32,984 nucleotides of DNA from Seison nebaliae. Its lineage: Eukaryota. The position numbers and the translations under genes are program-made. The notes beneath the pieces are model-generated. The model saw only the letters and a list, made by a program, of their open reading frames with translations, was not told where the DNA came from and ran no database searches. The stretch is taken from the NCBI GenBank assembly GCA_023231475.1, contig JALJEE010003233.1, forward strand, positions 1 through 32,984, in the 5' to 3' direction. Shown here in pieces: positions 7,318-30,899 of the stretch. The first letter of the stretch is position 1. Each line of letters begins with the position of its first letter.

Positions 7318-10300
7318 CTAGGTAAATGGAACACCAACACATATAAATTGTTTATCTTCCTTTTCAGGCAATTTCAATGTAATCGTATTTATTTTAGGTA
7401 CCTTGGGTATTTGAATATCATCCAATTCGGAGACTACTTCTGTCGAAAATGAATCGAACGTAAGTTCAAAATCAAGATCTTCCTCTGTATCATCTTCTTT
7501 TTTACTGCTTTCCATAGTAAGACGAGATTTCCTTGAAATTGATGGTTGTTTCACTTTCGATTGTTTTTCTTTCGGAATATATTCAGGAACATTATCTCGA
7601 CAAAAATTAAGAAATTTATGTTGTTCGTCTTTAAACTGTTTAATGTATTCGGCAAATTCCTCTTCAAATCGCTGAGCCTCTTTACTCCAATCCTCTTTCA
7701 AACTTGTCTGTTTACCAAACTTAATCGCAGAACCGGGACTCCCACCTTTTATTAAGAAATCTAGAAAATTTTAATACAACAAATTGTTCGACATATTATA
7801 AAAGTTTTCTATATAACGATCCACAAAATTTATTCCATTGTTAATTGTATCTTCAACATTTGTAATCGAATAATTTGTGATTGCTGATCGCACACCAGCA
7901 ATTGTCCAAAACAATTGTGCATTATACAATTTATCAAGATTGCACGTTTTCTCTCTAAGAATGAATGATAAAGTTTGAAATACTTCTAATTCATATAACC
8001 TTATTCCATCATCATACATTCCACGATCTTCTAATTGAGGATTTAAATGTGCACTGTTCATTAATACCAAAACTTTAGTTTCTATGTTTATCATATTCAT
8101 GAAATTTATTCAAATTTTCGTTTATAAACTAAGAAATAACTTTGCAGATTACATGTAATGATACTTTCATAAGAATAATATCTCCACAACTTATTGAACA
8201 GGAAAAGGAAGATGAATGATGTTTCCGTGAATATTTTGGTTAGATCTCTTATACTGTAACAATATAATTTATTAGTTCTTCAAACAATTTGAAATTTAAC
8301 CCAGGTAAAATCTTATAGAATCCAGTGTCCTTCGATTCATACTGCCTTAGACTAGACAAAAATTCCTTCATTTGACCATTAATCGGAGCAGACGTGTCTT
8401 TTTGATAACTTCTATCAAAACCACCAAGCGGATCCACTATCCATCCCAATTTTTCGTCTGCTCTTTGCTAAAAAGATTTTAAGAATTATCATTAAAAGAA
8501 ATATATAAATAAAAGAAACGACGTCTTTCGAATTTTTCTTTATCGTCATAGTAGACTTTAAAAATTAAATTTAAAATTTGGAGATAAATTAATTGTTGAA
8601 CTTCATCCTCTTGTTTTGAGTCAGGAATCTTGGGGAATGTTTGGAATCGGTTTAATAAAGTGAATAGAGAGAGATCTCTTGATATGCCTACAATTGTCGG
8701 TTTTAGGAAGGTGTTGATATTCTCAAGAGGCCATTCCATAGTTTCCTTATCCACGAGAAGTATCAAATTGACATCTATAAATATTGTTATGAATAAAAAA
8801 GATTATTATTAAATAAACTATTTTCGTAGCTATCCGGTTGTTTTATTAGAATTGGAGGATCTTTGAACAATGGTAATAATCGTTCGATTTTTTCCTTAAT
8901 ATTTAAAGAAATGGAATAGGTTATTTCTACTGAAGGAGGAGGTCTCTCATTCGCTTGCTTTTCTTTTACTTCTTTCCATTCGTAATTGGGAATTCCATTA
9001 ACAAATGTAGGAACTTCAGGATAATCACCACTGTGCATCCGATCATATTCTGCCGCCAGATCTTGGAAAAGAGCTTTATGCTCTAACGAATTTGAGGGAT
9101 CACCTTTCTTTTTCGTTTCTTTTGTGAAACAGAAAGCGAATTTATCATGCAATGGAGGATCACCAAGTGCTTCATTCAATTGATGTTGAACTTCATTGAA
9201 GGCAAAACTAAAATAATTATTCATTTGACCAACAATATTCTGATAATCTGCTTCGAAATTTATGAATTGTTCTTCCAATATTATTTTATTTAACTGGAAT
9301 ATAGAAAGAAATTGTAATTAGAGAAAATAGGAATTATTAACTAACTTTTGATTCTTCTGTTTCATTCAACATTCTGATAGTATCTTCATTCAATTTCTTC
9401 TTCAAATGAAATGTCCCTAATGCTTTTTTCCAAACTTCAATTTTAGAATTTATCTCTTGTCGTTCATTTGTGGAATACATAACCTTTCGAAATGCACAAA
9501 ATGATTCTTTTAAAAAATATAATACTATTATTGAGTTATACGATTTGTAATTTAACTTTCTTCATTCGAATTTGAAGATGTGTTGAAAGGAGGACGATGA
9601 TAAATTCCAAAAAATAGATAACGATTGTCATGAGAATGTTGAATCTGTAGAATTGTTGCATTATATTTCTTATAGAGATGGGGGAGTAATTTAAGATCCT
9701 TCAAATTTAATGTCGATATTCTCCACAACTAGAAAAAGATTCATAAAAGAATAATCAAAAAATTTTTAATTCGAACTCTTGAATTCAATCTCGCATCTTC
9801 AAGGAATCTTTCTAAACCGTTATGTGTGTTAACCGGAGTAAATTCAACGTTGACGTATCGTCCATAAAATTCACCTGAATAGCCGAATGATATCAAATGT
9901 AAATCCATTCCCATAATCGAATGGAGAATTCGATGGTTGATTGTCGAATAGAGACTTTTCTTCGGTTCATCGAATATTTCATGTAACAATTGCATTTTAT
10001 CCAAACTAACGATTAAAGCTTGATAAATGCTCATGTAGAGTACGGCTAATTTGGGATACTTTTTAAAATGACTTAACAGATGCATTAAATCATAACATAT
10101 CATTTTCATCAAACATTTATCTTCTGGTAATTCCACTACACCTTTCAAATCCACCACCATTTTAACGAAGCATTTCGTTAGACATTCGAATGCAATTAAA
10201 TAAAAGATATGTTTCTGATTCATTGCTATTCTTAACAAACTGGATGAATCATATCCTTTCACACTACTATCAGACAACACTTTTTTTATCGACACCATAC

Positions 10301-13300
10301 TCGTCAGATCATTATCTAATCTTAGTGTATCTGATTGTATGATGAAGGAGACCATCAAATCATAAGAATAAAACATTAAAGTGGCATTTTCAGTGGGTGA
10401 GTCGGGATTGAAATCGATTCCCATAAAATTGTGTTCCTTCAACCACGTTTTAGCATCTTCAAAGAATTTCTCATCAAATTCATTCTTTGATGTAATAATC
10501 GCTGCAATTCGAAAAAATTTTCCACAAATGTAAATAAATTCTCTTTGACATAAACGATTATTGGGAAATAATTTCAATTGTTTCTCATACGATACCAGTT
10601 CACTGAATGTTTTTGTCAAAAAAATTTCCAACCAATTATTCCATAAACGCAAGAAATGATAATCATTCGCTATATCGTTCGTATATTCTTTTAGAACGAT
10701 ATCAATCTTCCGAATATTTCGATTCATATAATTATATTTCGCATTAATATATTGCTCATATTCATACATTTCCAATAAATGTAAAATGTAAAGATAGCGA
10801 ATGAAAAGATATAATCGAAGAGTTGGTGTCGTTACTGAGAAGAACATATTAGCGCCAACATCATCCCAATGATATTCAGTTTTATCAGAAACATTTAAAA
10901 TATTTTGACTTCCTACCGTCAAATTCATGGTAGTCGTATCTAAATAATTACCAAGATTCCTAATCAATTGTTGAAATAATTGATTGGCAACTAATAAATT
11001 CGATTTAATATCCGTCTCAACATCCGAAGTCTTCGCCATAAACTTCAACAAACTCAGATGATTCAATACAGTTTTTATGTAGAACTTTATCTCTTTCACT
11101 TCCCAGAACCATTTAGTGGCCGTACGATAATAGTTTATCGCTTGTTGTAAATTATCATATGAATTTATGGAATGCATATCATCTCCTTTAATTCCCAATG
11201 CAAATATGAGATCAGCTAATTTCAATTTCAATTTCATTTTCATCGAATATAACCGATAGACAACAGAAAAATTTTTGGGATGAGTACTCGGATTAAATGA
11301 GAATTTCTTCATTTCAACAATATTATCTCCCCACAAGTCGTCGTCAGTTTTCTTTAATTGTAAGAAGAATGCCAAATCTTTTAAACATTCCAGATATTCT
11401 TCATCATTTCCTAAATTGAGAGATAGATTTTCATCTTCAGTCAGAACATCTTCAGTCTCTGTTGTTGGAGATTGTGTTTGTAAATTTGATTCTTTTTTTG
11501 GATTCATATTCTTCTGTATTAAATTTTTTACCGTTTCAATTGCGGATAATGTTATACTTCTCGCACCCAATAATGCTTTAGTATTTGAATGAATACTTGC
11601 TGTTCCATCAATCAATAGATTGACTGTCTCAAACCACAACACATCAGGTAAATTCGAATTTTCTAAATTTTTCAAAGCAATTTCCATTCCTTCTTCAACT
11701 CTCTGTTCTTGCTCAATGGCGATTTTCGAAAGAATAACATTGAAATGAACTGTCGAAATGATATTTTTCAAATTAATTGAATGTACCAAAACTCGTGATG
11801 CAATACTGCGACAAATACCCACTTTCCGTTCTGGCAAATATTCAATGATATCTCGAATAATCGTTGACCATAATCGATATTCGATAATTTTTTTAATTGA
11901 TTCTCTTGTAAATTTTTGATTAGAACTTCCTTTATTTGTTAAACGACTCAACTGTTCTTCCTTCAATGGATGTTCGCCATCCCAGATATCAGAAATGGAT
12001 GTTAATTCGATAGAATTTCTAATTTCATTTGACCATTCGATTATAAAATTACTTAAATTATTTTCAATCAAATTTCGATATGTTACGATTTTTCTCGTGT
12101 CGTTAATTCTCAAAAGAATTTTGAAGATGTTTAACATTGAACGTAAACGCAAAAGAATATTATTCGCGTGAAATGAATCAATTATATGATATTGTAAATA
12201 AACGACAGGTAACGAGAATAATTCGAATTCCATTTTTGGCATTATATCTAACAACAAATCGAGATAATAAATTGTATGTAAACTATTACCGAAATTTTCA
12301 GAAGAAAATGGGAAAATACCATCTCCTTCAATATCGTCGTCAATATTTTCGAATGATGGTGAATAAAAATTGTAAGATATCCAGAATTGTAAACTGATTA
12401 AAGAGGAGATTGTATAGTCTTTCTTCTTCCCACCAGAGTCCTTTCTATTTGATCGTTGTCTCTTTCCTCTTCGACTACCACCTGCATCTTTATCTGGCGT
12501 TTTCGTTAACGCCATTCGCCAAATATAAGCAATGATAACAATGGAAGTAACGATTGCTTCGGTACATAATACAAATTTCCCACATGAATAATAATATTGG
12601 GCTAAGAAAATTTTGGTGCGTAAAAAACAGTCCAAATATTTACATGTTTTGGGTAACTTCTTTATGCTGACGATACTCTTCTGCCAAATCGATAACTTGT
12701 CAGCATTAGCAAATAATTGAACGAATTGTTTCTGATAATCATCCGATTCAAATGAACGATTAAGTGGTGAATGAATTAGAGAAGATGTCAACATAATTCC
12801 ACAAAAATGTTGAAGATCATCACCAAATGAATTTGCATGAAGATATTGCATCAATTCTATAATTATTTCAAAACGAGTCAATCGATTTTGTAGTTCACTT
12901 TGTGAACGATTTCGAATAGCTAATTCTAATGTTTCCGAATCACCATTTTCAAGTGGCACATTACGTAGACATTCGTTCGCTTGTTTTGTCGATATATCGT
13001 CGATCGAATAGAAAATTTTTTGCCAAACTGTACTCAAATGAGAATGTACTCCATCCAATATTTGAACAGCATTCTTCACTGCACATAAATGGTCAAAATG
13101 ATTTCGGGACGCAACTGCCACTGTGATCCACATGAGAGCTATATATTCGATGGATTGTTCACGTAAATTGTGCATATCGAATTGAACACCCTGCCCCAAT
13201 TTTGATTTGGAAATAATGAGAAATTTTGTTAATTCTAATCGATGAGATCTGGGAACGGTTGGTAAAGCATCCTGAAGTAAATCTAAAGATTTCTGCCATA

Positions 13301-16300
13301 AACATCGTTGTTGATAAACTCGAAGAATTGCTACATAATATATGACTCTTAAAGTAAGATCATCGAATGCATCTTTATTATCAAACAATCCTTTCGAATT
13401 TGCATTCGTTTTAATATTCGACATCATTCCACTCATCTTCGAATTTTCTAAAGTTACCAAATATCCGTTAGGAAACTTCACATGATTTTCTTTTAATATC
13501 TCAGAAATCTTCTCATAATAATCTAATAACAAATATCGTTTGTTTGACGGAATGATATTGACGACACTATTCCAGAAACATCTTGCTCCATTAATCACTA
13601 AATCATAATTTGATGCTTCTAAACCATATCGAATGCTTTTGAGCAATGCATTAAATCCCAATTGTGTTTGTCTATTAATTTCATTAGTTTGAAATAATGA
13701 TTCAGAATTGTCCGATTTCTTTAATGCATCCAAACCTCCCAATAACGGTATCGCTAAATAAAAATGAACAATTGAGAAATTGATTAACGGATTTTGACTG
13801 TCTTCCCTTTGATGTTTAATTGCTCTCTTGTATGATTGGTCATTGCTCAAATTGATTGCCATTTGTGCAGCTAAAAACATCATTTGTAACGGATTGAGAT
13901 TCTTTGATTCTTTTATCACTTTTGCAATTTCATCAACTGCGTTCAATCCTTTCAAAACAGCCGGATTCTCTGTGAAGGGTGTATAAACTCCAATATTCAT
14001 TAATATCAATGTCGACGTTTGACAGATGAGAATGAGATCTTGAAAATAAACATCTGGCGCATATTCATACCAGTGACTGGATGATGTTTGATAATTAAGA
14101 AATATCTTTTTTAAAAAAAATTATTTTTTAAATTTTACATAATCAATACTGACTTCAGCAAATGAAGGAATTTGACTGAAATCAAATTTTCGTTTTTCCA
14201 TAAATCTCGACTTCTCCAAATATCGACAATACAATGCAACCGAATATTGGCTCAAGTCATCATATATCTTTAATTTGCTAAGAAATTCTTTGCACGAATC
14301 AGTCATACCCGCTTCAAATTGATTATGTTTCGATACGTCAGTAGCATTCGAAGAACTACGATGAAATTTCCCGGTCCGAGACGATGTAACACGAGATTTT
14401 AAAGTCTTCGTTGATTCAGTCACATCTCGGATGTCGGAGGAAGTGGTCGATTTATGTTCCATTGGACTAGTCTATAATTGAATATATTTCACCTCGCTAA
14501 TATACATTCCATAATATACTACTAACAATTGATTGATAAATGGGATAAAGAGTTGATTGACGAAGTTGATGCCATAATAATTTCACTTTTATCGGTTGTT
14601 GCAATTCAATTTTGAGGATAACCCAATATTTGATGAGTGGCATACGATAATTATAATCCAATACATGGTGTGGCAATTTATCACTTTCTAATATCAATAA
14701 AACTTCTTCACAAATCTTTAATATATATATCGTCAAAATTACAGAAAAAAAATGGTAACTGTTAATGCTAATTTTAAATCAGTTAATCTTTCTTTTGATA
14801 CATTCTTCATCGCTTCATTCTTATCCATTTTCATTTGAATACCACTCGGTTTCACTTCTATAATAAAGTCAAGATTTATTAATAAATCTTCTCTTTAAAA
14901 AAAATCGAACTGACAAGTTGAGTTTCGAAAATTTGATATAATTCCACTGTATCATAATCAATAATTTTCCATCTGGCAAACGTACATTTGATGACCATCC
15001 TTGCTAAACATACGTAATGTTCAACATTCGTACCGAATCCGTTGTAATAAATAATGTAGAAACAAGTGAGTAAAGTATCGTTCAATTTGGATAAATGACG
15101 AAAAATATATTCTTGACCCAACGAACTATTTTCCACTAATCTCTCCTTGACTGAGATGTCAAATGAACGGAATAAATGATAATAATAATTCCAAGTATAC
15201 GTCAACGCATTAATATTCAACCAATTCTCATCTAATAACAACGCGATCTGCATAGCTCGATTAAAATGCATAACAGCCGCATTGCCCAACCATTCCAACC
15301 AGTATTTATATGCGAACCATTGAGTAAGATTCTTCTCATATGATCGATTGAGTTGATGAATTTTACTTTCGACTGTTAATTTTTGAGCAACCCCAATATC
15401 AATATTTATTGATAATTGTGAAGCTGGTTTCTCTACAGCAGCCATTAGAACTTCAGCATTTTGTTTCATCGTTTCATTAGTGATATAGTTCAATGGTTTC
15501 AATTCTAAATACAATACCATGAATAAAATATTTCATTTGAGTTTTATAAAGAAAATTTAAAACTTTGTAATTTGATTAAATGAATCAATGATTCACCTCT
15601 TAACAAATGCATTTCGCCAAGGCTACGCAATATTCGTCGTTTATCTTCCTTTACAATTTTTGCATCTTTTAATACCGCTAAATATTTGGCTAATTCCAAT
15701 GGAAAATCTTTATCGACCAGAGTTCCTCTATCCAAAAACAATTTAATATATTTGTCAAATAAATTTTCAATCAAATAGAAGAAACCTTGCATCTTCTTCA
15801 GTAGGTGTTGATTCTTTCACATTCGCCCATTGAAATAAACAACTGATTGGCAACTGAACAATATTGAAATGAGGTTTACGAATATATTCTTCATATAATT
15901 TAATATGTTTATCTATTTTCGATGTTAAATCGACATCGTTATAATTCAATGATACTGGATTTTCTACCATTCCATCAGTTTCATCAACTATCGGATTTTC
16001 CAACATTATTGTATCATCATATAATAAACAATATAATGTACTTATTCGAACGATTTCCCATTCATCTCGTCTTCGAGCGGATTGTGCAATATCAGCCCAA
16101 GCATAAAAATCTTCAGCTAATTCACCTAATTGTGATTGAGTACCAAATACAAAAAATTTTATGAAATCATTAGAATCATCTTTCTTTCCTGTCTTATCCG
16201 TTGTGATGTCGGTCGTTATAGTTGATGGAGATGGTTCATCTTCCAGATCTTTCTCCGTTTTGTCAATTTTCAAGATTTTTTGAAATTCCATTCCCACATA

Positions 16301-18662
16301 ATGTTGAGCTTTCATTACTGTTTTCATATATTCATTAACTATCCGATACACATCTGGCAAATTCGTCTCATCAATTTTAGTTATCGATTTTAAAAGACGA
16401 GTCACCGAATTTTCTGATTTCCACATCATCTCTACGTTAGCCGCTCCCAAAAGATTACAACATTTCATTAACAAGTTCTTCGCCATTCCCATTTGTCTCG
16501 AATCATCGGTAGTACGTAAATTTTCCAGGACAGTTCTAGCAATATCTCGATCGTGTGAGAAATATTCAACCCGATCCGTAACATAACACATTCGTTTTCC
16601 CATCATTCGTATATATGTCGTATGCTCGTGATGTACATCATGGAACCATGCCTACTAATAGAAATTTAATTTTAATTTAAAATTTACAAACTCCATGTAC
16701 ATGTTTAATTCCTGCATTGATAGCGTCTTCATCATATAAAATTTTTGCACATTCTATATGTAATTTACATCTCAATTTTCGATTGTTACTGAAAATTATA
16801 ATTTAATTAATATTTAATTCATTAACATTCTTATCGGAACCTTTTTATCGTTTTCAAAGTTTCAGTAACAGAAACTAATGATTTCTTCAATTTCTTCCTT
16901 ACACCTTTCTGTAATAACGGTTGGACAGTATTCCATACTAAAGAACAACCGGTTTCTAAAATTCCATAAATTTCATTCATTTCGAGAATATATAAATGAT
17001 ATTTGTCATTCCCAAACTTATCCATCACATCAGCAATATATTGAGTCAACTTCTCAATGACATTCACTCGAGTATTTATCATGTCATCACTATAAGTTCG
17101 TTGATATTTACCGATTTTTTTCATTAACATAAGTGTTTTAAGATAATGAAGATGATGTTGATTGAAATCGTTGAGTTTCTAAAAAAAATAAAATTTTCTA
17201 CAAATATTTTGGAAGAAATGAAACTTCTCTAATATATGTTAAATGATCAACAATCTTCTTCATTAGAGAATAATGATGTCCATTGAATAAGAAGTAAGCT
17301 AATTCAATCATAATTCTTGCGGTTTCATCATTCGTTTCCATTGGTGGTAAATCAATCTTCATGTTTGGTACTTCAACTGCAAAATCATTTACTGGCAATT
17401 CAATCAAATCTCTATCAGTTGCTGTTAATTGATAATTCAGATTGAATGCTGGAGCTTCAGTTACAATAATAAATTAATTTATGATGAAATAATATACCTA
17501 ATAAACACCTGATGTAATTGTTTCAATACCTTTCGGCAATAATGCTTCAATAATCCATTGAGCATGAAAAATTTTCATGCTGTCCGATATCTTCATGTGC
17601 GTTAATATGACAATGCATGCATAAATATAATCGAATGGAGTCTCCGTCAATTTCTTGAGGAATACATTTAACGAAAAAATTTCACTTGTCACCTGATGAA
17701 AAATAATATTTTATTATTTTATTAATTACTAACAACAATAGAAATTATTCGTCGTCGAATATTAGTCGATTGAACACTATTTTGTGTTCGATTTAGAAAG
17801 ATGTCGATTAATTGTGAGATTTCATTCGTATCATTCCCTTCCCGATTCGTAAAATAACAATATTCATCAATTTTCCCTTCAATTTCCAAACTAAAAAAGT
17901 TTTTCTAAAAATCATTAATGAATTAAAATATTTGACCTGCTAGCAAAATTATATAAATGTGATGGACAATTCTTTATTTCAAGAAATTTCTTTTGGAATT
18001 GTTTGAGAGTATTCACTGTGAAACGTTTAGTTCCATCATAGAAATTGGTTTTCCATGAATCCCAAAACAAAATGAAAGATCTGAATATAATGTCTTTATT
18101 TCTGTCCATATTCGTGGAATTAAATTATTATAATATTATTCAAAAAGAGATATAACTTTGCGGTAACATTTTCAATATTAATCGCTTTCGTTAAATATTT
18201 TGATATTTCAGTTAATCTCTCCTAAAAACGACGAAGAATATTAATGGAAATCACAAAAATTAAAAACAATCGGTTTTATCGCTGTTATTAAACTGATTGC
18301 TATCAGTTCATATTGGACGAGATATCCACGATGTAATGAAATATCTCCATTTCGGTTCCCACTGAAATATATATCTAAACATTGTTGAGCTGCTTTTAAA
18401 TTGTTAAACTATCAAAATTTCATAAATTATTCTGAATTTTCACAATGAAACTTTTACTGCTAATTCCGCTGCATCAATCAATATATCTGGAGTGAATATA
18501 ACCGCCTGATTTTCAACACCAATAAGAAGCAATGCAAATGCTTCGTCGAATATTTTATTATCTAATGATAACGTCAAATTAAGCAAATTATTAGGGTAGA
18601 GAACAGAAGAAACCTTCTGTGTTTTCTGCTTCTTTCAATTTTGTTTTTATTCTGGAAAACAT
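7318..18662 (-). CDS. CFAP46: Cilia- and flagella-associated protein 46 (TPR-like central-pair protein), 26 exons, roughly 3,300 aa
   Basis: The spliced N-terminus MFSRIKTKLKEAE...FTPDILIDAAELAVK...CLDIYF, the segment WNTVQPLLQKGVRKKLKKSL...LRCKLHIECAKILYDED and the C-terminal WIVDP...TCNLQ...CVGVP align with CFAP46 as I recall it. 25 short GT-AG introns join the ORF fragments in frame; one central exon spans 14105-9777. Confidence 0.85.
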
Positions 18663-19011: not shown

Positions 19012-19645
19012 ATGGATTCTCTAAATAGCGAAAATAGCCATTCTGGTACAGGAGGAGAAAGTTATTCTTTTAATTTTCATGTTCGATAATTGATGAAATT
19101 TCAAAAATTAAATAAAAATAGTTTTGGGATATATCGAAAGTTATGGCTGGTTCATTATTGGCGGTGTAGCGTTAATGTATTATGTTTGGCATCGATACAA
19201 GGATCAAATTGACAATCGAATAAATTCGATCAAAGCTGCAACTAGTGCTGGTATTAGGAAGAAAGATGATGACACCAGTTCCTTATTATTCATTTGATAA
19301 ATGTTTTTTTTATTTTATTTGAAAGAACAAGATAAGACGGAAGAACGAATACGTGCCGCTCGTCAAAAGTTACAAGAGAAACATGATGAACAATCGTTGA
19401 TGAGGAAATTGAAGAAGCAAGAAGCTGAACGACAAAAGAAGTTGTTGGAAATTGAAAAGCATGAACAACTGAAGAAAGGATTAAGTGTGAAAAAAGATGG
19501 AGATCTTACACTGGAAGATTTGGGACTTGGTACTAAAACGGAAAGACCAACAAAAAGTAAGAATGACGATTATAATCCTTTGATGGGTGATGGTGCAGCT
19601 TGTTCCCGAATGAAATTTCGTCCTGCAGCTGGTGGATGAGGTTAA
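19012..19645 (+). CDS. SELENOS: Selenoprotein S (VIMP) with Sec encoded by UGA at 19637-19639
   Basis: Exons 19012-19060, 19122-19277, 19326-19645. Motifs: ESYGWFII transmembrane segment, 'RAARQKLQEKHD' p97-binding helix, YNPLMGDGAACS. Ends GGT GGA TGA GGT TAA = GGUG*, the SelS C-terminus. A SECIS follows. Confidence 0.92.
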
Positions 19646-19677
19646 TTCTTCTCTGTTCCATCTCACCAAATCGTCCA

Positions 19678-19759
19678 TTCGTTGCCCATGACGAATATTA
19701 TAAAAAATCGTTCAAATAACGAAAATAATATTCCGAAGTAAACATATGCACAATACGAA
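19678..19759 (+). promoter_or_regulatory. Type II SECIS element in the SELENOS 3' UTR
   Basis: Core AUGA (19688-19691) and GA (19735-19736). Helix II GAATATTAT (19693-19701) / ATAATATTC (19725-19733). Unpaired A run at 19702-19707. Apical ministem TCGTT/AACGA. Basal helix TTCGT..TGC / GCA..ACGAA. Confidence 0.88.
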
Positions 19760-20485
19760 GTCAACCAGAAAACATAAAGAATGAATTAAATTGAGGAATA
19801 AATTTTATAATTGTTTTTTCAATAATTCATCTTTGTAAAATTAAAAAATGTTTCAAGAATAATTTCTTAAATGAAACGTCGTGACATATTTGAATTTTTC
19901 TTATGTAATTAAGTGATGTGAAAACTTCAATTTGATATTAGTTTTACATAATTGATAAAAAGTGACAATCAAGAAAATGGAGAAGTTGATTCGTTTGAAT
20001 GTTAAGTTGAACTGATCGTGGAAATTAAATTTCCCATCGTAAGAGTGATGATTTTACTCATCAAAATGTTAGTGTGTTCATGATCCCATTAATTTCATTT
20101 ATATACACGACATCACTTTCTGCAATGTACGATGAACGGGAAGTGTCTACTCTTTCATATAAAGAAATGTAAAAAGAACAAAAGAAAATTTTCTGTTTTT
20201 TTATTTTACGTTTGAATTTCTTTGATTACATGAGCAAAATATGCAAGGTGAATGCACGGATAAATGTTTGCTTTCGATTTAAAACTATTTTATTTTCTCT
20301 CTATCACAATAGGAATAGAAATTGAATCATATTCATTTCTTATTCTCTTGAAAAGAATTTAAACGAACTACCATCTCATCGGAAAACTTTTATTATTCTA
20401 ACTCCAAAGAAAAAATCAAAAGTCACATTAAAACTATATTGTAGTCGGCACAACAAATTGAAGAAATTGTTTTAGAAAGTTTGAA

Positions 20486-21822
20486 ATGAATCAATTTGAT
20501 CATTGGAGAGAGGTCGCACCTTTATCTTGCGGTGCTAATGCCACAGTGAACACAGGGTTTTATTTTACGAATGTTATTGGGAGTAATTTATCTTTAAACT
20601 TTTCAGAAGTTTCCGTCATTATGCAATACTTTCTGGTGTTACGACGGCTGATGATGATGTCAGTCAATCATTTTGGTGGTGGTGTTCTGGTGTCGATTTT
20701 TCTGTAGCAGGAACTGGTGGACGAAAATGTAGAAATTATATTCCTTCCTGGTCCATGTTATTAGAAACGATTATTATTTCACTTTTCTCAATAATCTTCG
20801 AATTATATCTTCCTTATACGTACATCTATGGAAAACGGAAGAGAAAAAATCATCAGAATAATATTGGATCTACATCTGCATCAAAAGATGTGGAACAAGA
20901 TAAGACGAATAAAAGAAAAGAATCGAAACGTGATCGAATGTCAGTTTCATTGGACGAATTTATTTCGGGGAAAAGTTTTGAAGAGAATTTACAACCAACT
21001 GAACCGAATTCTACACCAACTGTTGCATTTCTTCGAACTTTTTGTTGTATATTTCATGCTCTGGTGTGGGGTTTGGAACTCTCATACAAATTATCAACAA
21101 GACAAATGATCTGGATTCTCAATCCATGTCACGTTATCACATTTACACAATTGTCATTGTTGTTGTTGTTACCATGGAAAAGTAATCCAGAAGGAGCAAA
21201 TTCGAAGACATCAGTTAGATTAACGATGAATACTTCCAGTCTGACTTCAATTCATAAGATTTACAGGAATTCCAAAATTCAATTTCTTCTCATTTTCCTT
21301 CATACACATACCTGTTCAATGAATGGACCTCTATTGGCATTATTGTTTCCCATATTAAATACGAGATATCTCCCCGGCGAACAAGGAGTTTATTGGCTTC
21401 AGCATTTTCTTATTCTATTCGTTCCTTTCGTTCTCGTTCTCCTTCTTGATTATGATGGAAATGATTTGGTTGAAGGTGAATTTGAAAAGGAAGAGAAAGC
21501 TATTCCTTTCATTTATGGAACTGAATTCCGTTGTTCATTAGTATTTGGATTGGGTGTACAACGAATTTATAATCTACTTATACTTCAACCGATTGCTTTT
21601 GTGACAGGAGTCAATTTGAATAATATTATGTGTCCTGCTATCTCTGACCCTTTTAGCAATACATGTCACTATCGTTATTTCGTTCATTGTCATCAGACAC
21701 TTCTCGTTTTCGTTTTATCATACATCTATGCATATCTATTGGAATGGTGGATATATTTATACTACGCGAACACACGATATATTCAACGGGCGCATACTTT
21801 ATTCACAAAGAAGTATTCCTAA
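20486..21822 (+). CDS. TMEM164: Transmembrane protein 164 homologue
   Basis: Intron 20557-20606 links the ATG at 20486 to an exon with WCSGVDFSVAGTGGRKC, LELSYKLSTRQMIWILNPCHV, MNGPLLALLFP, YWLQH and VNLNNIMCPAISDPF, all characteristic of TMEM164. The start codon is less certain. Confidence 0.88.
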
Positions 21823-22090
21823 TATTTCCTCTCCAACTCTCTTTACAATTTATAATTTTCACAGATCTATATATTATTTTCTCTCTTCATCGTTCATTTC
21901 AGTGTTTTACAGGAATTTCGTATAATCTCTAAAATTTAGTAAATTCTCTTCCTCTTATTAGAAGATTTATTTTGTTTAATGATAAAATCATTTATCTTAT
22001 TACAACGAACAGTTAAATAAACAATTGCTCATGAAATTACAAATGCCTTTGGCCAATTAGAATTATTTCTTATTTACAACAAAAATTAAA

Positions 22091-23113
22091 ATGACGTCAT
22101 CTCTAATTAGTTTTACATCAATTATCATCATCTTCTTATTTCATCCGTCGACATCCGTCAATTTCTTGTTTAGTACAAACCCGTTGAATATCAACAATTA
22201 TGATTTCTCTAAAATATCCGTATTAGCGACGACTTATGTTAATCGAACTGTTATCGATATTGTTCATAAGAATAAGAAGAAAATCGTTCCGTTGACTGGA
22301 CTACCAAAAAATTTGACGGATATCGATGAGAGACATATTTGGATAAGAAATAAATTGGATATGATATTGGAAAATCGTTTCGATGGAATCAATATAGATT
22401 ATGAATCAGCGATAAAATTCAATTCATCCGATTATTTTGGAATGAATGAATATATCAAAGAGATTTATTTAGTTTTTAAAACAGCCAAATCCTCTTTACA
22501 AATTACCATTGATGTTGCTTGGAATTCACATTGTATTGATGATCGTTGTTATGATTATGAATTACTGTATAAATTCAGTGATTATCTCATTGTTATGGCA
22601 TATGATGAACAATCAGAAATGTTCACCCGTTATTGTATAGCTTCACCAAATTCTAATGTTAATTATATGGTGAGTGGTATTTATTCATATATATATAACA
22701 ATATTCCTAAAGATCATTTAATCATTGCATTGCCTTGGTATGGCTATATTTATAATTGTACGCATTTCATCGATAATCTTTGTCAAATCAAATCAACTCA
22801 TTGGAAAAATGTAACATGTTCTGATGCTGCTGGTACGGAAATTAATTATTCATTCATCATTAATAATATCCTTAAAAAAAATAGGACAATTGTTCAATTT
22901 GATATTGTGTCTCAAACTCCGTTTTTCAACCGATTTAAAACTTCTCAAAATATGCAACAAATTTGGTTCGATAACGAGAATAGTTTATCAATAAAGATTG
23001 ATCTTATTCAAAAGATGAAATTAGCAGGTGTTGGAGTGTGGGAAATTGATGCTGTTGATTACCAAGATCCAGAGACAACGAACGATATGTGGAGTACATT
23101 ACCTAAACTTTAA
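22091..23113 (+). CDS. CTBS: Di-N-acetylchitobiase (GH18), intronless
   Basis: Signal peptide; FDGINIDYE catalytic motif; QITIDVAW..CIDDRCYDY, VMAYDEQS, LPWYGY, CSDAAG, QIWFDN. Confidence 0.9.
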   Translation: MTSSLISFTSIIIIFLFHPSTSVNFLFSTNPLNINNYDFSKISVLATTYVNRTVIDIVHKNKKKIVPLTGLPKNLTDIDERHIWIRNKLDMILENRFDGINIDYESAIKFNSSDYFGMNEYIKEIYLVFKTAKSSLQITIDVAWNSHCIDDRCYDYELLYKFSDYLIVMAYDEQSEMFTRYCIASPNSNVNYMVSGIYSYIYNNIPKDHLIIALPWYGYIYNCTHFIDNLCQIKSTHWKNVTCSDAAGTEINYSFIINNILKKNRTIVQFDIVSQTPFFNRFKTSQNMQQIWFDNENSLSIKIDLIQKMKLAGVGVWEIDAVDYQDPETTNDMWSTLPKL

Positions 23114-23282
23114 TTCGATAATCGAGAAAAAATCATTAATAAAATATTTGATGTTCTACCAAATTTTTTTTGTATTATTTCTTATTGATAATTCATATTA
23201 ATAAAATTCCAAAATTGAATATTCGAATTTTTAATGTCGAAGCCGCACAGGATCACCATCGTGAAAATAAGTCTCTTTCAAA

Positions 23283-24114
23283 ATGACAAAAGAAGAACCT
23301 ACAGATATTGTTAGTCAAACAACCGACGATGTCGTATTATCGAATCCCAATAAACGACTTATTGTAATTTTAGAACAAGCCAATTTGGAAACAGTGAAAG
23401 TTTCTCGTTTTCATTAAAAATCTTTATAAAAAATTTTCAAATCAGAATGGTCGATCATATGAATTATTAAATGCTGATCGACATCAACATATTATAAGGA
23501 AACATAAATTGAATTTATCCGATTGTCGACCAGATATTACTCACCAAGTTCATTTTCGTCAGAATTTTTTTTATAAGTTTTTCATATTAAATTTCAGTGT
23601 TTATTGATGTTAATGGATAGTCCATTGAATCGTTCGGGTCATTTACAAGTGTTTGTTCACACGAAGAAAGGTGTTCTCATCGAAATAAATCCACAAACGA
23701 GGATACCACGTACATTCGATAGATTTTGTGGATTGATTGTGCAATTACTGGATGAACTTTGTATTCGTGCTAATGAAACATCTCAGAAATTATTAAAAGT
23801 TTGTCTTATTTCCCTTAATGAAACTTTATGTATTTATTTGATAGATCATTAAAAATCCAGTAACTGATTATTTGCCGAGTGGATGTAAAAAATATGTGAT
23901 GTCGTGTCATGCGGAAAAGCAGATTCATGCTCGAGAATTAGTACCTAAAGATCCAAATGAGATAATTGCAGTGATAATAGGTGCAATTGCCAAAGGATCA
24001 ATTGGTGTGGATTATGGGGAAGGAGAATATTCAATCTGTTCTTATCCTTTATCTGCAGCTTTAGCATGCACCAAAATTTGTACAGCATTTGAAGATGAAT
24101 GGAATATAAAATAA
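23283..24114 (+). CDS. EMG1: rRNA small-subunit pseudouridine methyltransferase NEP1
   Basis: RLIVILEQANLETVK|NGRSYELLN, RPDITHQ|CLLMLMDSPLNRSG, RIPRTFDRFCGL, LLK|IIKNPV, YPLSAALAC. Introns 23400-23445, 23548-23597, 23799-23844. Confidence 0.96.
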
Positions 24115-24583
24115 GAATATAAAATAAATCTCTCTCATAAAAAGAAAAATATCATTTGTAAAATTTTCATTCATTTCATTTTACGCGAAAATAAACATAA
24201 TATTTTTCCCTTATCTTTTTTTGGAGCTTGTTTATTGATGAGAGTTTTGAACGAAAAAAATTATTCGCAAAAGAATTTGAGAGAATTGGAAAAAACTGAC
24301 ATACACCAAAATAAATGAGAGACAATTGAATGAATTCTTTTTTCTTCGTTCAATGAAAAGAATGTTTTAAGATACATTTTGCCCATTGGGAAATGGGAAA
24401 TTGAAAATTTATTTATTCAAACATACCCATCAATATTCATAGTCGAAACTCATTCAATAATCTTTCTTACCTAGAAATTTCATTCTTTCTTTCTCCAAAT
24501 TGTTTCCGAAAGAAAAAATGAAATTCATTTAAATTCAACTTTTGGCAGTGTGTTGATTTGAGGAATAATTTGGAAGGAAAAAA

Positions 24584-25850
24584 ATGACTGATAGTGGAAA
24601 TAAACGTCGCGAAATTTATAAATTTAATGCATCTTGGCCCATCTACGCTGTGAATTGGACATATCGATCAGATTCATTATTCCGAGTGATTATTGGATCA
24701 TTTCTTGAAGAATATACGAATAAAGTTCTCTCCAATAATTCTTCTGACAATTCAAGAATGAATAATATTTTCTATTAAAATAATTTTAGATACAAATTGT
24801 GAGTTTGAATGAAGATGTCGGAACGTTTCAAGTTGAGGCGACTGTTGATCATCCGGTACATATTTGATTGATAATTATTCGATTATGAAATTTATTTATT
24901 TTAGTATCCCGCTACAAAAGTAATATGGATTCCTGATCAAGTTCCTTCTTATTCTATCAAACTTTTTCCATTTAATTTTGAAATTTGAAGAATGATGAAT
25001 ATTGTTCTCTCTTTGCAACGACCGGTGACTATTTAAGATTGTGGCAAGTGTCATCTAATGGAAGTGATGCGAAACAAATATCTTTGTTGAACAATGTTTA
25101 AATTTATTTTTTTTTAAAAATATTCTTTTATTCTTTTAACAGAATAAAAATTCCGATTATTGTTCTCCATTAACATCTTTCGATTGGTGTGAAAAAGATT
25201 GTAGAATTCTTGCAACGGCATCTATTGATACGACGGTGACAATTTGGGATTTGTTGGTGGAAAAGAAGATTGGAGAGATAAAGGAGAATCGGAAAAATAT
25301 TTCATCTGCATCGTTGAAAACTCAATTGATTGCTCATGACAATGAAGTGTTCGATGTGGCCTTTGCAAGAGGATCAGCTGCTTCTTCAGATGTTTTTGCA
25401 TCAGTTGGAGCTGATGGTTCGTTAAGAATGTTCGATCAAAGAAATCTACAACATTCCACTATCGTTTTTGAAGAACCAAAAAATACACCATTATTACGAT
25501 TATCTTGGAATGCAGTAGATGATCATTATATCGCAACAATTGCTCTTCGTAGTAGTGATGTTTTCATATTTGATATTCGCGTTCCTAGTACACCGGTAGC
25601 TCGTCTTACATCTCATGTGGCACCGGTAAATGCCGTTTGTTGGGCACCGCATTCCGCTTGTCATATCGTTACAGTTGGAGATGATTCATTGGCGTTAATT
25701 TGGGATGTATCTCGTGTACCGATTGTGAATGAAGATCCAATATTGGCTTATACTGCGTCGTCAGAAATTAGTGGAGTTGCTTGGAACGCTAAAGTTCCTG
25801 AATGGACAACGATTGTTCATGATTCGACACTGGAATTTTTACGTGTATAA
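24584..25850 (+). CDS. DCAF7: DDB1- and CUL4-associated factor 7 (WDR68/AN11 family WD40)
   Basis: GSFLEEYTNK|IQIV, DHP|YPATKVIWIPD, TGDYLRLW, LNN|NKNSDYCSPLTSFDW, KTQLIAHDNEVFD, FASVGADGSLRMFD. Introns 24725-24789, 24856-24904, 24941-24990, 25096-25142. Confidence 0.96.
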
Positions 25851-26278
25851 TTAAAAGTTAAGACAATCAAATTCTTGTGTGGAATTAGTAGAATATGTTA
25901 TAAAATTTATAATTTTCATTTTTCTCACTTTTATAGATCTGCTTTCTTTAAGAACGATCGTTGTAAAATTTGGTTTTTTATTTTTAATTTTCATTTCCAT
26001 CTTTATTAAATGTCTCGTAAATAAAATATTTTAATTCTTGTAATAATATTCTCTTTCAAATGAAATATTATTTTCGGTATTAAGAACAAATTTAGTTTTT
26101 CAACAAATTTAGAATTAAAAAATTTGTATCTAAAATTAACGTTTTTACTGGTAATAATTTGCGCTCATCAAATTTCGTATAAGAGACTGTTCAGAAGAAG
26201 AGAAAATATAAAAATTATTTTTACTAATTTGTAGATAGACTACACTTTTTATTGAAATAATCTGTTACACTTAAAATC

Positions 26279-26728
26279 ATGAGTCAAAGCGACGGAGAAA
26301 GTAATATGGATGTCAGTTTAGAAGAGAAAGAAGTACATCTCGATGGATTAACGTCCACTCGAGATACACAGGTGTCACTCTTCGATTTAGATGATTTATC
26401 ATCTCAAAGTGAAAATGTTGTTAAGGAGAAGAATCCTTATGTGAAACTGATATCTTCAGACGAACATGTTTTCTTTATTAAAAGAGAATATGCAATGATA
26501 TCAAAAACTATATCGGCGATGTTGTCTGGTCCAGGAGAATCGGAAGGAGATGATGAAAATGAGATAATGTTAGCTCAAATTCCATCACATATCTTATCGA
26601 AAGTTTGTCATTACTTTCTTTATCAAACATACTGGACGACGAACAATAATGAGTATCCCACCAAATTTAAAATTTCACCAGACACGGTTCTCGAATTGTT
26701 GATGGCATCCAATTATTTGGATTGCTGA
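26279..26728 (+). CDS. ELOC: Elongin C with an acidic N-terminal extension
   Basis: YVKLISSDEHVFFIKREYA..SKTISAMLSGPG...IPSHILSKVCHYF...LELLMASNYLDC. Possible 5'-UTR intron 26189-26234 (GTTCAG...TACTAATTTGTAG). Confidence 0.92.
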   Translation: MSQSDGESNMDVSLEEKEVHLDGLTSTRDTQVSLFDLDDLSSQSENVVKEKNPYVKLISSDEHVFFIKREYAMISKTISAMLSGPGESEGDDENEIMLAQIPSHILSKVCHYFLYQTYWTTNNNEYPTKFKISPDTVLELLMASNYLDC

Positions 26729-26933
26729 AGAAAGTGATAAATGATATGGGAGCGGTTAATGGACACCAACTACAACTCAATAAATTAAATGAAATTTTTT
26801 AGCGTTGAATTTAATGCGAAATTCCATTTATATGCATTTTTTTATTGTTCTTAAATAAATTTATTTAATCTACTAAAGTAAACAATATGATTCTACAGTG
26901 AATGAAAAAAAATTCATTGAACAACATTTTTCA

Positions 26934-28424
26934 ATGTATTTTATAAAAATCTATTCATTTTTATTGGGTTGTATAGTGATATATGAATTTCAAAAATATG
27001 TTTTACCATTTTTCTACATTCATCAAGTACGTGAAAATGAAGTCCGAATAAACAAATCATTAGAAAAAGTCGAGGTAGTAGATAGCAAGGTAGTAAAAAA
27101 GAAAAAAAATCGAAAAGGTAAAATAATTCCTCCACTCTTCCTCAATTTATCAATAACGAATGCATGGAAGAAATTAACACTTCAACCATTAAATAATATT
27201 ACACATATTACATTAAAGAAACATCTATTGGATTATTTGGAAGTGCGTTCAAAATGCCCATCAAATATATTTTTAAAATTAAACAATTCATCAACGAAAT
27301 TGAAATGTGAAAATTTTTGGCAGTTTAAAGGTTTCAATATTGCCATCTATTTTAATCCTTTCTTCCATGTTCTTCCTCTTATAGATAATCAATCAGTTTG
27401 GCGTGTTTCACCAAAAAGCGATGAGAATTATAGAACTTTCGTTTATAATGGAAGTTATACACCTCGACATTGCCAAGCATTGCAACGAGTAGCTCTTATT
27501 ATACCTTATAGAGATAGAGAGAAACATCTCGAAATATTCTTGCATCACATTCATCAATTTCTTCAGAAACAAAGTATTAATTACGTAATAGTTTTAGTAG
27601 AACAAGTTCATATTATTCCTTTGATTTATTTTCAGTATATTATTCAGATCGATCGTCATATGTTCAATCGAGGTAGTTTACTTAATGTCGGAGTAATAGA
27701 AGCCGTAAAAATGGATCCATCAATTAGTTGTATAATTTTTCATGATGTGGATCTTTTGCCGTTAAGATTATCCAATTTTTATAATTGTTTAGACCAACCT
27801 ATTCATATGTCATCGGCAATTGATGTTTTGCATTACAAGTTTCTCTAATTAATTCCATTCATCGTTTTAACCGTTCATTTAATCTCTTAGATTGCCATAT
27901 CAAACATTGTTGGGTGGTGTATCAAGTTTCCCGGTAAATGTTGTGTTTGCAGTTAATGGATTTGCCAACATTTATTGGGGATGGGGAGCTGAAGATGATG
28001 ATCTATCTCAAAGGTTCTACAAATAACTTAAATGTAGGTAATTAATGAAAAGAAACTATTTTTAGAGTTCACTATTATTATAGGCAGAATTTTCACAGAT
28101 TCAAATTTCGACATTATCATAATACTTACGATAGTGGAAGATATACGATGGCGATGCATAATCATTCGGATTATCAACAAAATGGGTTAAAATTATTCCT
28201 AGATAGACGATTACCATAATTTGTGTTGCAGGATGTTATATAGGAATTACCGTAAATTTTTGAAAAGCGGTTTAAATACTCTCACATACAATTCTTCTTG
28301 TACTGCGACGAAATTGTATATGCATATAAAAGTATCCATCAAAGAAGAGGATTGGCCATCTTATAAAAAATTAAGAAGTAAAAATCAATGGAAGAAAACT
28401 AATAAATCGAAACCACTAGTTTAA
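26934..28424 (+). CDS. GT7 beta-1,4-N-acetylgalactosaminyl/galactosyltransferase (BRE-4-like)
   Basis: N-terminal TM, VALIIPYRDREKHL, FNRGSLLNVG, FHDVDLLP, LPYQTLLGGV, YWGWGAEDDD. Introns 27606-27647, 27839-27890, 28014-28065, 28186-28231. Start uncertain; the first in-frame ATG is 26934. Confidence 0.9.
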
Positions 28425-29931: not shown

Positions 29932-30080
29932 TTGTAACGACAAATGACTATCAGTCTAATAATAATAAAAAGAATCTTCTATAGAAAAGAAATTAATTAA
30001 ATTAATTAGAGGAAATTGGATAATTTATAAGGAATAAAATGGGGAGGAAAAAATTGTCATTTTCACAAAATATATTTCAC

Positions 30081-30899
30081 TCATTTCAATTTAATCAGAT
30101 CTTTATCAATCGAAAACTTTTCACTTATAATTGGTATCAGAGTTTTACTGTAATCTCCTTGCAACGTCAATTCCTTATCACTTCCCACGGCACAACCACA
30201 GCTAAATTTCTGTGAGAAAGCCTTTTTCGCCGCACTCAATTTCACGTTATGTGTCGACAAATTTGAAATGGTTGTCAATCGCTTTCCTCGATTCATGGTC
30301 ACCGATATCAAGATCTCTTTCGGTTCTTCAGTTTTGGTAACAATTTTATTAGCTTTTCCACCTCTTGATTGATGGCCTGTAGATTTCTCTTTCGAATTGT
30401 TCATTAATCACAAACAATTCAAAAAGAAAAAATATCATTATGAGATATCGAAGGTTAATATTTCGAACGTAGTTTCAACGAGGGGAAAATAGAAGTTTAA
30501 ACGACATATTATTTCAAGTTGTATATGAAAAATTTTTCTTTTTCAATTGTTTGTGATTAATAAATAATTCTAAATTAATTAAGCAATTTTTATAAACTAA
30601 CCGTTCGATACTCGAGTAGCATTAGCGGAACTTACTTTCTCATCGAAATTAGATATACATGTTGTTGTTGCTCTTGTTGAAAGAATACCATCATCATCAT
30701 CATTATTATCATCCTCATCATTCAATTGGAGATCGTTCAGTCGATTAAGTGCTACCATATCATTGATATTCATTCGATTTCTACGAAGCCACATAACACA
30801 TTTACTGTAATTTGGACCATATTCACAATATTCGTAAGGCAATCCACATTGACCACAATATTCCACTTCTAACGCTTTTAATTCAGTGGTTGTGTCCAT
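30081..30899 (-). CDS. DENR: Density-regulated protein (translation reinitiation factor, SUI1 domain), 2 exons
   Basis: VEYCGQCGLPYEYCEYGP zinc site; SUI1-like RGKRLTTISNL...FSQKFSCGCAV...LQGD. Phase-1 intron from 30601 to 30389 (alternatively 30377). Confidence 0.9.
30403..30561. repeat. 29-bp inverted repeat (28/29 identical) with a 101-nt loop inside the DENR intron
   Basis: ATTAATCACAAACAATTCAAAAAGAAAAA (30403-30431) versus TTTTTCTTTTTCAATTGTTTGTGATTAAT (30533-30561). Confidence 0.92.

Follow-up and report, generated by a model that had tools for sequence, protein, structure and literature searches.

Structured Introns and Hairpin Precursors Described to Date

In yeast, stems that form within introns bring the splice signals closer together and can mask cryptic 3' splice sites, as set out in the consulted sections of PMC12350175; stems with such effects are also established in fish (PMC4691745). 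Introns bounded by long inverted repeats are also known from Hypoxylon, where, according to excerpts of PMC9024468, the symmetry of the terminal repeats seemed dispensable, a point that counts against a splicing role for such a stem at the locus considered here. Seison nebaliae, a seisonid relative of rotifers, has a compact genome of about 46 Mb, and a second, GC-richer lineage has been described for it (both from the genome report PMC8351084, in excerpt). For the same genus, excerpted text gives hairpins of 75-175 nt (PMC12256650) and microRNA loops of 62 ± 30 nt (PMC12553114). No published report on the present locus or on Seison intron structure was found in the literature searched, which excludes most subscription papers, and the consulted part of PMC10125929 held nothing relevant. 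Elements of this type are already known; the novelty lies in the locus and in the evidence from two lineages for constraint on it.

DENR Gene and Its Long Intron

The window, the whole stretch of S. nebaliae DNA that was analyzed (contig JALJEE010003233.1, 32,984 nt), carries a DENR gene on its minus strand with the following parts:

30602..30899, minus strand: DENR coding exon 1, with the DENR_N domain (Pfam PF21023), ending in phase 1; NCBI model P0001 maps to it exactly
30377..30601, minus strand: DENR intron, 225 nt, with a GTT donor and a CAG acceptor (predicted junction)
30389..30391, minus strand: AAG (+213), an in-frame alternative acceptor at the stem foot, which would give a 213-nt intron
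30081..30376, minus strand: DENR coding exon 2 with the stop codon and the SUI1 domain (Pfam PF01253)

The reading frame is preserved by either acceptor (+213 or +225), with a product of 197 or 201 aa. The NCBI model takes the acceptor at 30377, which sets the intron at 225 nt, and the earlier observation that an intron of 213 or 225 nt is about four times as long as any other here is borne out, the 35 other gene-model introns all measuring 40-65 nt. With gene-model lengths averaging 50.4 ± 5.9 nt in these neighbors, the DENR intron is 4.5 times their mean. Its 3' end is purine-rich (11 of 14 positions, against 2-10 in 26 other introns). A search for DENR relatives returned three distant proteins only, and no rotifer locus. 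Downstream, a UAA-family transporter gene lies about 150 nt from DENR, and the NCBI model joins the two through a 170-nt intron (29948-30117) that skips the DENR stop; this fusion is likely an annotation artefact.

Inverted Repeat and Predicted Stem

The first-pass annotation had reported a 28/29-bp inverted repeat in this intron. Its arms, 30403-30431 and 30533-30561, do match at 28 of 29 positions and enclose 101 nt, but the true arms are longer: the full repeat, 30390-30431 and 30533-30574, has 42-nt arms of which 38 positions match (90%), including 10 of the outer 13 (P 0.0015 at p=0.33). Consequently, the ATTAAT words taken earlier for the arm ends sit within the 42-nt arms, which run on for 13 positions beyond. 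The elements of the predicted structure are:

30533..30574, minus strand: 5' arm, intron +28 to +69
30432..30532, minus strand: loop of 101 nt, with no structure beyond chance and no AG on the sense strand
30390..30431, minus strand: 3' arm, intron +171 to +212
30384..30431, minus strand: alternative local hairpin formed by the 3' arm and the bases just after it, -17.9 kcal/mol

The repeat is the top local inverted repeat of the window, with a score of 30 against 15 for the next and at most 14 in three block shuffles. The whole intron is predicted to fold at -48.1 kcal/mol (z -5.66), which none of 200 shuffles equaled, and the minimum-free-energy (MFE) stem has 36 pairs over 38 positions. At predicted equilibrium this long stem prevails in exon context at 10-37 °C, while the loop by itself is unstructured (z -0.2). 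The flank sums of 54 and 66 nt given previously are correct for the 29-bp core; with the full 42-bp stem the length outside is 28 or 40 nt, and with the 38-position MFE stem it is 36 or 48 nt. The base content of the arms is intron-like, at 14% and 21% GC against 19%. The local hairpin is strand-specific (z -2.9 on the sense strand, z -0.75 on the antisense strand) and is outcompeted by the long stem, with 0.0 expected pairs in context.

Each arm region (30384-30431 and 30533-30584) is also a rough palindrome around ATTAAT, giving four related tracts. The arm pattern had no match in metagenome contigs. Elsewhere in the window, at 1247-2185, inverted arrays of a 31-nt unit lie about 615 nt apart; these are foldback or MITE-like and unlike the DENR arms.

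Neighboring Introns and Candidate Splice Signals

The 35 introns used for comparison are gene-model inferences, assembled with UTR introns and the trypsin and Kazal genes left out. NCBI model P0002, a large gene at 7321-18662, contributes 26 introns, all of 40-59 nt, and nine further ones of 46-65 nt come from the SELENOS, WD40 and glycosyltransferase genes, being the nine retained among 14 script picks once five doubtful ones (37-46 nt) had been set aside. The range of 40-66 nt proposed earlier for the other introns therefore holds, with 40-65 nt in 35 of 35. In 34 of these 35, the acceptor is the first AG at least 38 nt from the donor.

The donors of the same introns (7761-18613 and 19061-28231) read GTT in 30 cases, GTC in three, and GTG and GTA in one each. 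The usual animal donor is GTRAG. Donors dominated by GTT may point to altered U1 or U6 pairing, and a literature search for GTT-type donors returned nothing for this group. A branch-motif signal is weak across the introns (p 0.01-0.12 over six tests). The selenoprotein S-like gene among these neighbors (19012-19639, plus strand) has a frame ending in TGA after GG; the TGA is possibly a selenocysteine codon, and no SECIS match at the Rfam gathering score was obtained for this gene.

Within the DENR intron, the candidate signals are:

30574..30582, minus strand: branch-like TTAAT motifs at +20 and +24 within the 5' flank, candidates not kept in the second lineage
30556..30560, minus strand: branch-like TTAAT in the 5' arm, paired, about 23 nt ahead of the decoy acceptor (candidate)
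30538..30540, minus strand: decoy acceptor AAG, +62 to +64, within the stem and paired in the model (candidate)
30403..30407, minus strand: branch-like TTAAT in the 3' arm, paired and lying 31 nt ahead of the acceptor end; retained by the second lineage (candidate)

Use of the decoy would yield a 64-nt intron and a DENR product truncated to 108 aa. Apart from GAG, the AG at +64 is the sole one between +38 and +210, and it lies inside the stem; from +65 to +210 the sense strand has no non-GAG AG (shuffle P 0.005, for a test picked after viewing the sequence). Of 72 intergenic windows of 101 nt, three lack such an AG, and the antisense strand of the loop has five. Two points count against the decoy: such an AG is commonly expected by chance, and its acceptor score of 1.8 is weak, with 31 of the 35 real acceptors scoring higher.

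Copy Number of the Repeat

Copy number and conservation were judged from contigs aligned to the window, in contig sets that may miss records and of which the best-matching ones may be the source of the window itself. In all three contig sets that hold the locus, one contig spans 30250-30678 unbroken and without difference, and depth across most of the loop equals that of the flanks, with no extra cover. Elsewhere, each run gave only two or three short arm matches of 19-42 nt at 80% likeness. These matches on other contigs (19+22, 36 and 42 nt), like a 23/29 arm match within the window, were considered as copies and judged to be chance in AT-rich DNA. The repeat thus looks single-copy in the aligned contigs, and an active MITE family is unlikely. 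The earlier suggestion of a MITE with ATTAAT/TTAA ends is not supported as an active family, as no close copies appear in the three contig sets and the arms extend past the supposed TTAA target. Although TTAA does flank 30408-30556, it belongs to the longer arms, and no target-site duplication of 2-5, 8 or 9 nt was found outside the 42-bp, MFE or 29-bp boundaries.

Constraint on the Arms in a Second Lineage

Diverged DENR contigs, which to judge from their sequence are of the second S. nebaliae lineage kind mentioned above, allow the intron to be compared; they have a depth of 3-4, against 14-27, and differences below depth 5 may be errors. In exon 2, differences affect 13 of 31 third codon positions and, among the fourfold sites, 8 of 13, in a comparison that leaves out a stretch by a clipped end, where two of the 20 differences are unlisted. 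Where the window has 154 letters, the second-lineage intron has 129 (25 nt fewer), and its loop, about 23 nt shorter, does not align. The 3' arm carries five changes in 41 nt: two are placed, at 30398 and 30399, and the other three, unlisted, probably lie within 30406-30430. Three runs, drawn from two studies at most, share these 3'-side differences. For the 5' arm, the loose end before 30585 of one contig, from one of four runs, shows by eye that the outer 22 nt are kept with three changes; the 5' flank beside this arm differs and is 2 nt shorter. No second-lineage piece aligned to the inner 20 nt of the 5' arm, which hints that these differ between the lineages.

Altogether, the arms show 8 changes in the 63 positions seen of 84, about one-third of the rate at third codon positions. 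Changes are rarer there than at third codon positions (13/31; Fisher p 0.003) and at fourfold sites (8/13; p 0.0005), and no more frequent than in coding sequence overall (16/92, p 0.5). By eye, 20 of the outer 22 bp are paired in each lineage. Among the five placed changes of the outer stem, no two-sided compensatory change was found between the two lineages; by eye, two of the changed pairs gain pairing, two lose it and one becomes G-U. On these alignments, the arm pattern is one of constraint without covariation.

The length outside the stem is 40 nt in the window and 38 nt in the second lineage. The intron ends are also well kept: the last 21 nt (30377-30397) have no listed change, and at most three fall around the first 17 nt (30585-30601). 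As read by eye, the second-lineage 5' flank could add a few base pairs to the stem, covering the AGs at +213 and +215.

Proposed Role of the Stem in Splicing

The reading adopted here, with moderate confidence and at about an even chance of being right, is that the predicted stem guards splicing: it would leave 40-48 nt outside and bury the +64 acceptor, whose use would truncate DENR. The stem would form ahead of splicing commitment, and its 36-42 predicted base pairs would leave 40-48 unpaired bases, the usual intron length here. If the spliceosome takes the first usable AG at least 38 nt from the donor, the decoy at +64 would be concealed by the stem, and the AG at +213, at a folded distance of 28-36 nt, would be passed over as too close, leaving +225. 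Because +225 lies at 40-48 folded nt, the first-AG rule applied to the folded RNA would pick the acceptor of the NCBI model. The AU-rich foot of the stem might then open for branch recognition. Such a stem would likely have originated by inverted duplication of ordinary intron DNA, and its arms may have been retained because loss of one would expose the decoy in an intron that is still long.

The length clamp suggested in the first-pass annotation fits, and it gains backing from the second lineage, in which both arms and a near-equal outside-stem length persist while the loop varies. Several observations count against the guarding role. Any insertion into a normal intron would also yield a normal outside length; with the 29-bp core, a folded-distance rule would pick +213; and the two strands fold alike (-48.1 and -47.2 kcal/mol). 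Moreover, the branch candidates that are kept are paired in the stem, and those that lie unpaired in the 5' flank have no counterpart in the second lineage. The NCBI model, too, can err, as its joining of DENR to the next gene shows.

Should the guarding role be true, the locus would be a clean animal case of intron length measured on folded RNA, and the narrow intron sizes of Seison would make the rule testable genome-wide from existing data. A bolder extension, which must be regarded as improbable, holds that the Seison spliceosome works as a hard ruler, with GUU donors and the first AG at least 38 nt away, and tolerates only those long introns that are folded shut. The DENR intron would then be a switch set by folding, its first 64 bases forming a full decoy intron that destroys the mRNA if the downstream arm does not pair in time. 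Under that extension, hairpin folding would set the level of a translation re-initiation factor.

Alternative Explanations

The strongest rival, which the earlier annotation did not raise, is a microRNA made from the arms; it is unlikely, though the chance is appreciable. The intron would then contain an unannotated long-loop precursor whose arms give a 22-nt duplex, at about +39/41 to +60/62 and +180 to +201/203, with the loop as the part excised by Dicer; since a branch-like motif lies within the duplex, Microprocessor and splicing would be in competition. A branch point within a microRNA hairpin has precedent (PMC3794580, in excerpt). Retained arms around a free loop are the usual shape of Seison microRNA hairpins in the excerpts of PMC12256650 and PMC12553114, and here too the arms are kept while the loop is unstructured and variable. 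A stem of the microRNA type, about 33-35 bp between single-stranded flanks, is present by prediction (36 pairs over 38 positions), close to the norm of about 33 bp, and 4 of the 29 listed Seison microRNA loops reach at least 100 nt. The CNNC motif is a feature of microRNA precursors, and one lies at +220, 17-19 nt past a plausible cut. On the other side, the DENR hairpin does not appear among the 29 Seison entries of table ST1B, a list from one small-RNA library, and four arm motifs were absent from the supplementary files searched. The best 22-mers of the arms contain 5-6 G+C, whereas by eye only 1 of the 29 listed matures is as poor; loops start with UUG in 17 of the 29, and the DENR UUG is, again by eye, out of register with the CNNC. 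Both arms have changed between the lineages, with one change near the 5p seed, at +41, and three unplaced ones probably within 30406-30430, and the Rfam miRNA matches are all sub-threshold and mostly on the local hairpin. Because the list of 29 rests on one library, it may have missed a weak or stage-specific microRNA. If the DENR hairpin is one, it would be the 30th gene of a microRNA set that is among the most reduced in animals, and it would overlap splice signals. The local hairpin was also considered as a 5'-tailed mirtron and rejected, as it stops 7 nt short of the acceptor end and is outcompeted by the long stem.

The remaining explanations are each less probable. The stem may be a functionless relic, which is quite doubtful: a lone MITE of some age or a duplication by template switching, slowly decaying, with arms alike by chance, by low mutation at A/T sites or by arm-to-arm conversion. 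Excision of the TTAA-flanked segment 30408-30556 would leave an intron of 60-72 nt, folding has no strand bias and no two-sided compensation is seen, and the rough palindrome in each arm is a symmetry at the DNA level; however, TTAA is a palindrome within longer arms, the three contig sets hold no near-identical copy, and the arms change at about one-third of the rate of third codon positions, with the loop and 5' flank unalignable. A regulated switch, likewise held to be doubtful, would consist of a race between splicing to +64, which would bring a frameshift, a stop and likely decay, and either 3'-arm pairing or formation of the local hairpin. It draws on the first 64 nt being a full normal-size intron, with a GTT donor, TTAAT about 23 nt before AAG and an ORF cut to 108 aa, on a second, sense-only pairing partner of the 3' arm, and on the two placed second-lineage changes of that arm, both of which by eye become G-U pairs in the local hairpin. 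Yet this hairpin carries no equilibrium weight at 10-37 °C, the decoy is weak and the inner donor at +187 scores -0.9; that donor score also led to the rejection of a cassette exon of 122 nt between introns of 64 and 39 nt.

It is very improbable that the loop encodes a snoRNA or another small RNA that the stem closes from outside. Housekeeping genes often carry snoRNAs in their long introns, and a short stretch of the loop resembles, by eye, the end of the second lineage's loop. The earlier report of no C or D box on the sense strand of the loop is upheld, no exact one being found on either strand; the sense strand has one C-like word with one mismatch, at the wrong end. An H/ACA RNA fares no better, with no ACA at the 3' end of the loop, a single ACA at loop position 11 and a loop z of -0.2, and the bases adjoining the 3' arm, the expected place of a box and guide site, differ between the lineages. 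In E-value mode, Rfam gave seven matches, all far below gathering (SNORD125 at 15.7 bits against 56), and ARAGORN found no tRNA. The small RNA proposed earlier for the loop thus finds no backing in its boxes, in Rfam (0 matches at the gathering score) or in the loop itself, which is unstructured and not conserved.

Comparison with Known Systems

Among described systems, the closest to a stem that guards splicing are the zipper and downstream stems of Saccharomyces cerevisiae, as presented in the consulted sections of PMC12350175. Like them, the DENR stem lies in a long intron, where it may shorten the distance and hide an acceptor, and a zipper-type stem of at least 6 bp in a long intron is present by prediction (36 pairs, z -5.66). 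In those sections the yeast stems fall wholly before or after a known branch point, whereas the DENR branch candidates lie before and inside the stem; the DENR stem, at 36-42 bp, also differs in belonging to an animal gene and in taking up almost the entire intron, and its function here is a predicted one. Fish introns with (AC)m-(GT)n tracts are similar in having complementary tracts at opposite intron ends that bridge the splice sites, but according to the excerpts of PMC4691745 these are dinucleotide repeats found in 10% of zebrafish genes, and the DENR tracts form a unique-sequence repeat that occurs once in the window. The long-loop microRNA hairpins of S. nebaliae itself (PMC12256650 and PMC12553114, in excerpt) share the species, a stem of about 35 bp and a long, variable loop; unlike the listed ones, the DENR arms are near-perfect, very AU-rich and both changed between lineages. 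Finally, the sister stwintrons of Hypoxylon resemble the DENR intron in their length of about 200 nt, their terminal inverted repeats of 45-55 nt and a branch element masked in the stem, and differ, as far as the consulted text of PMC9024468 describes them, in forming a multi-copy family with nested introns, whereas the DENR intron has no close copies.
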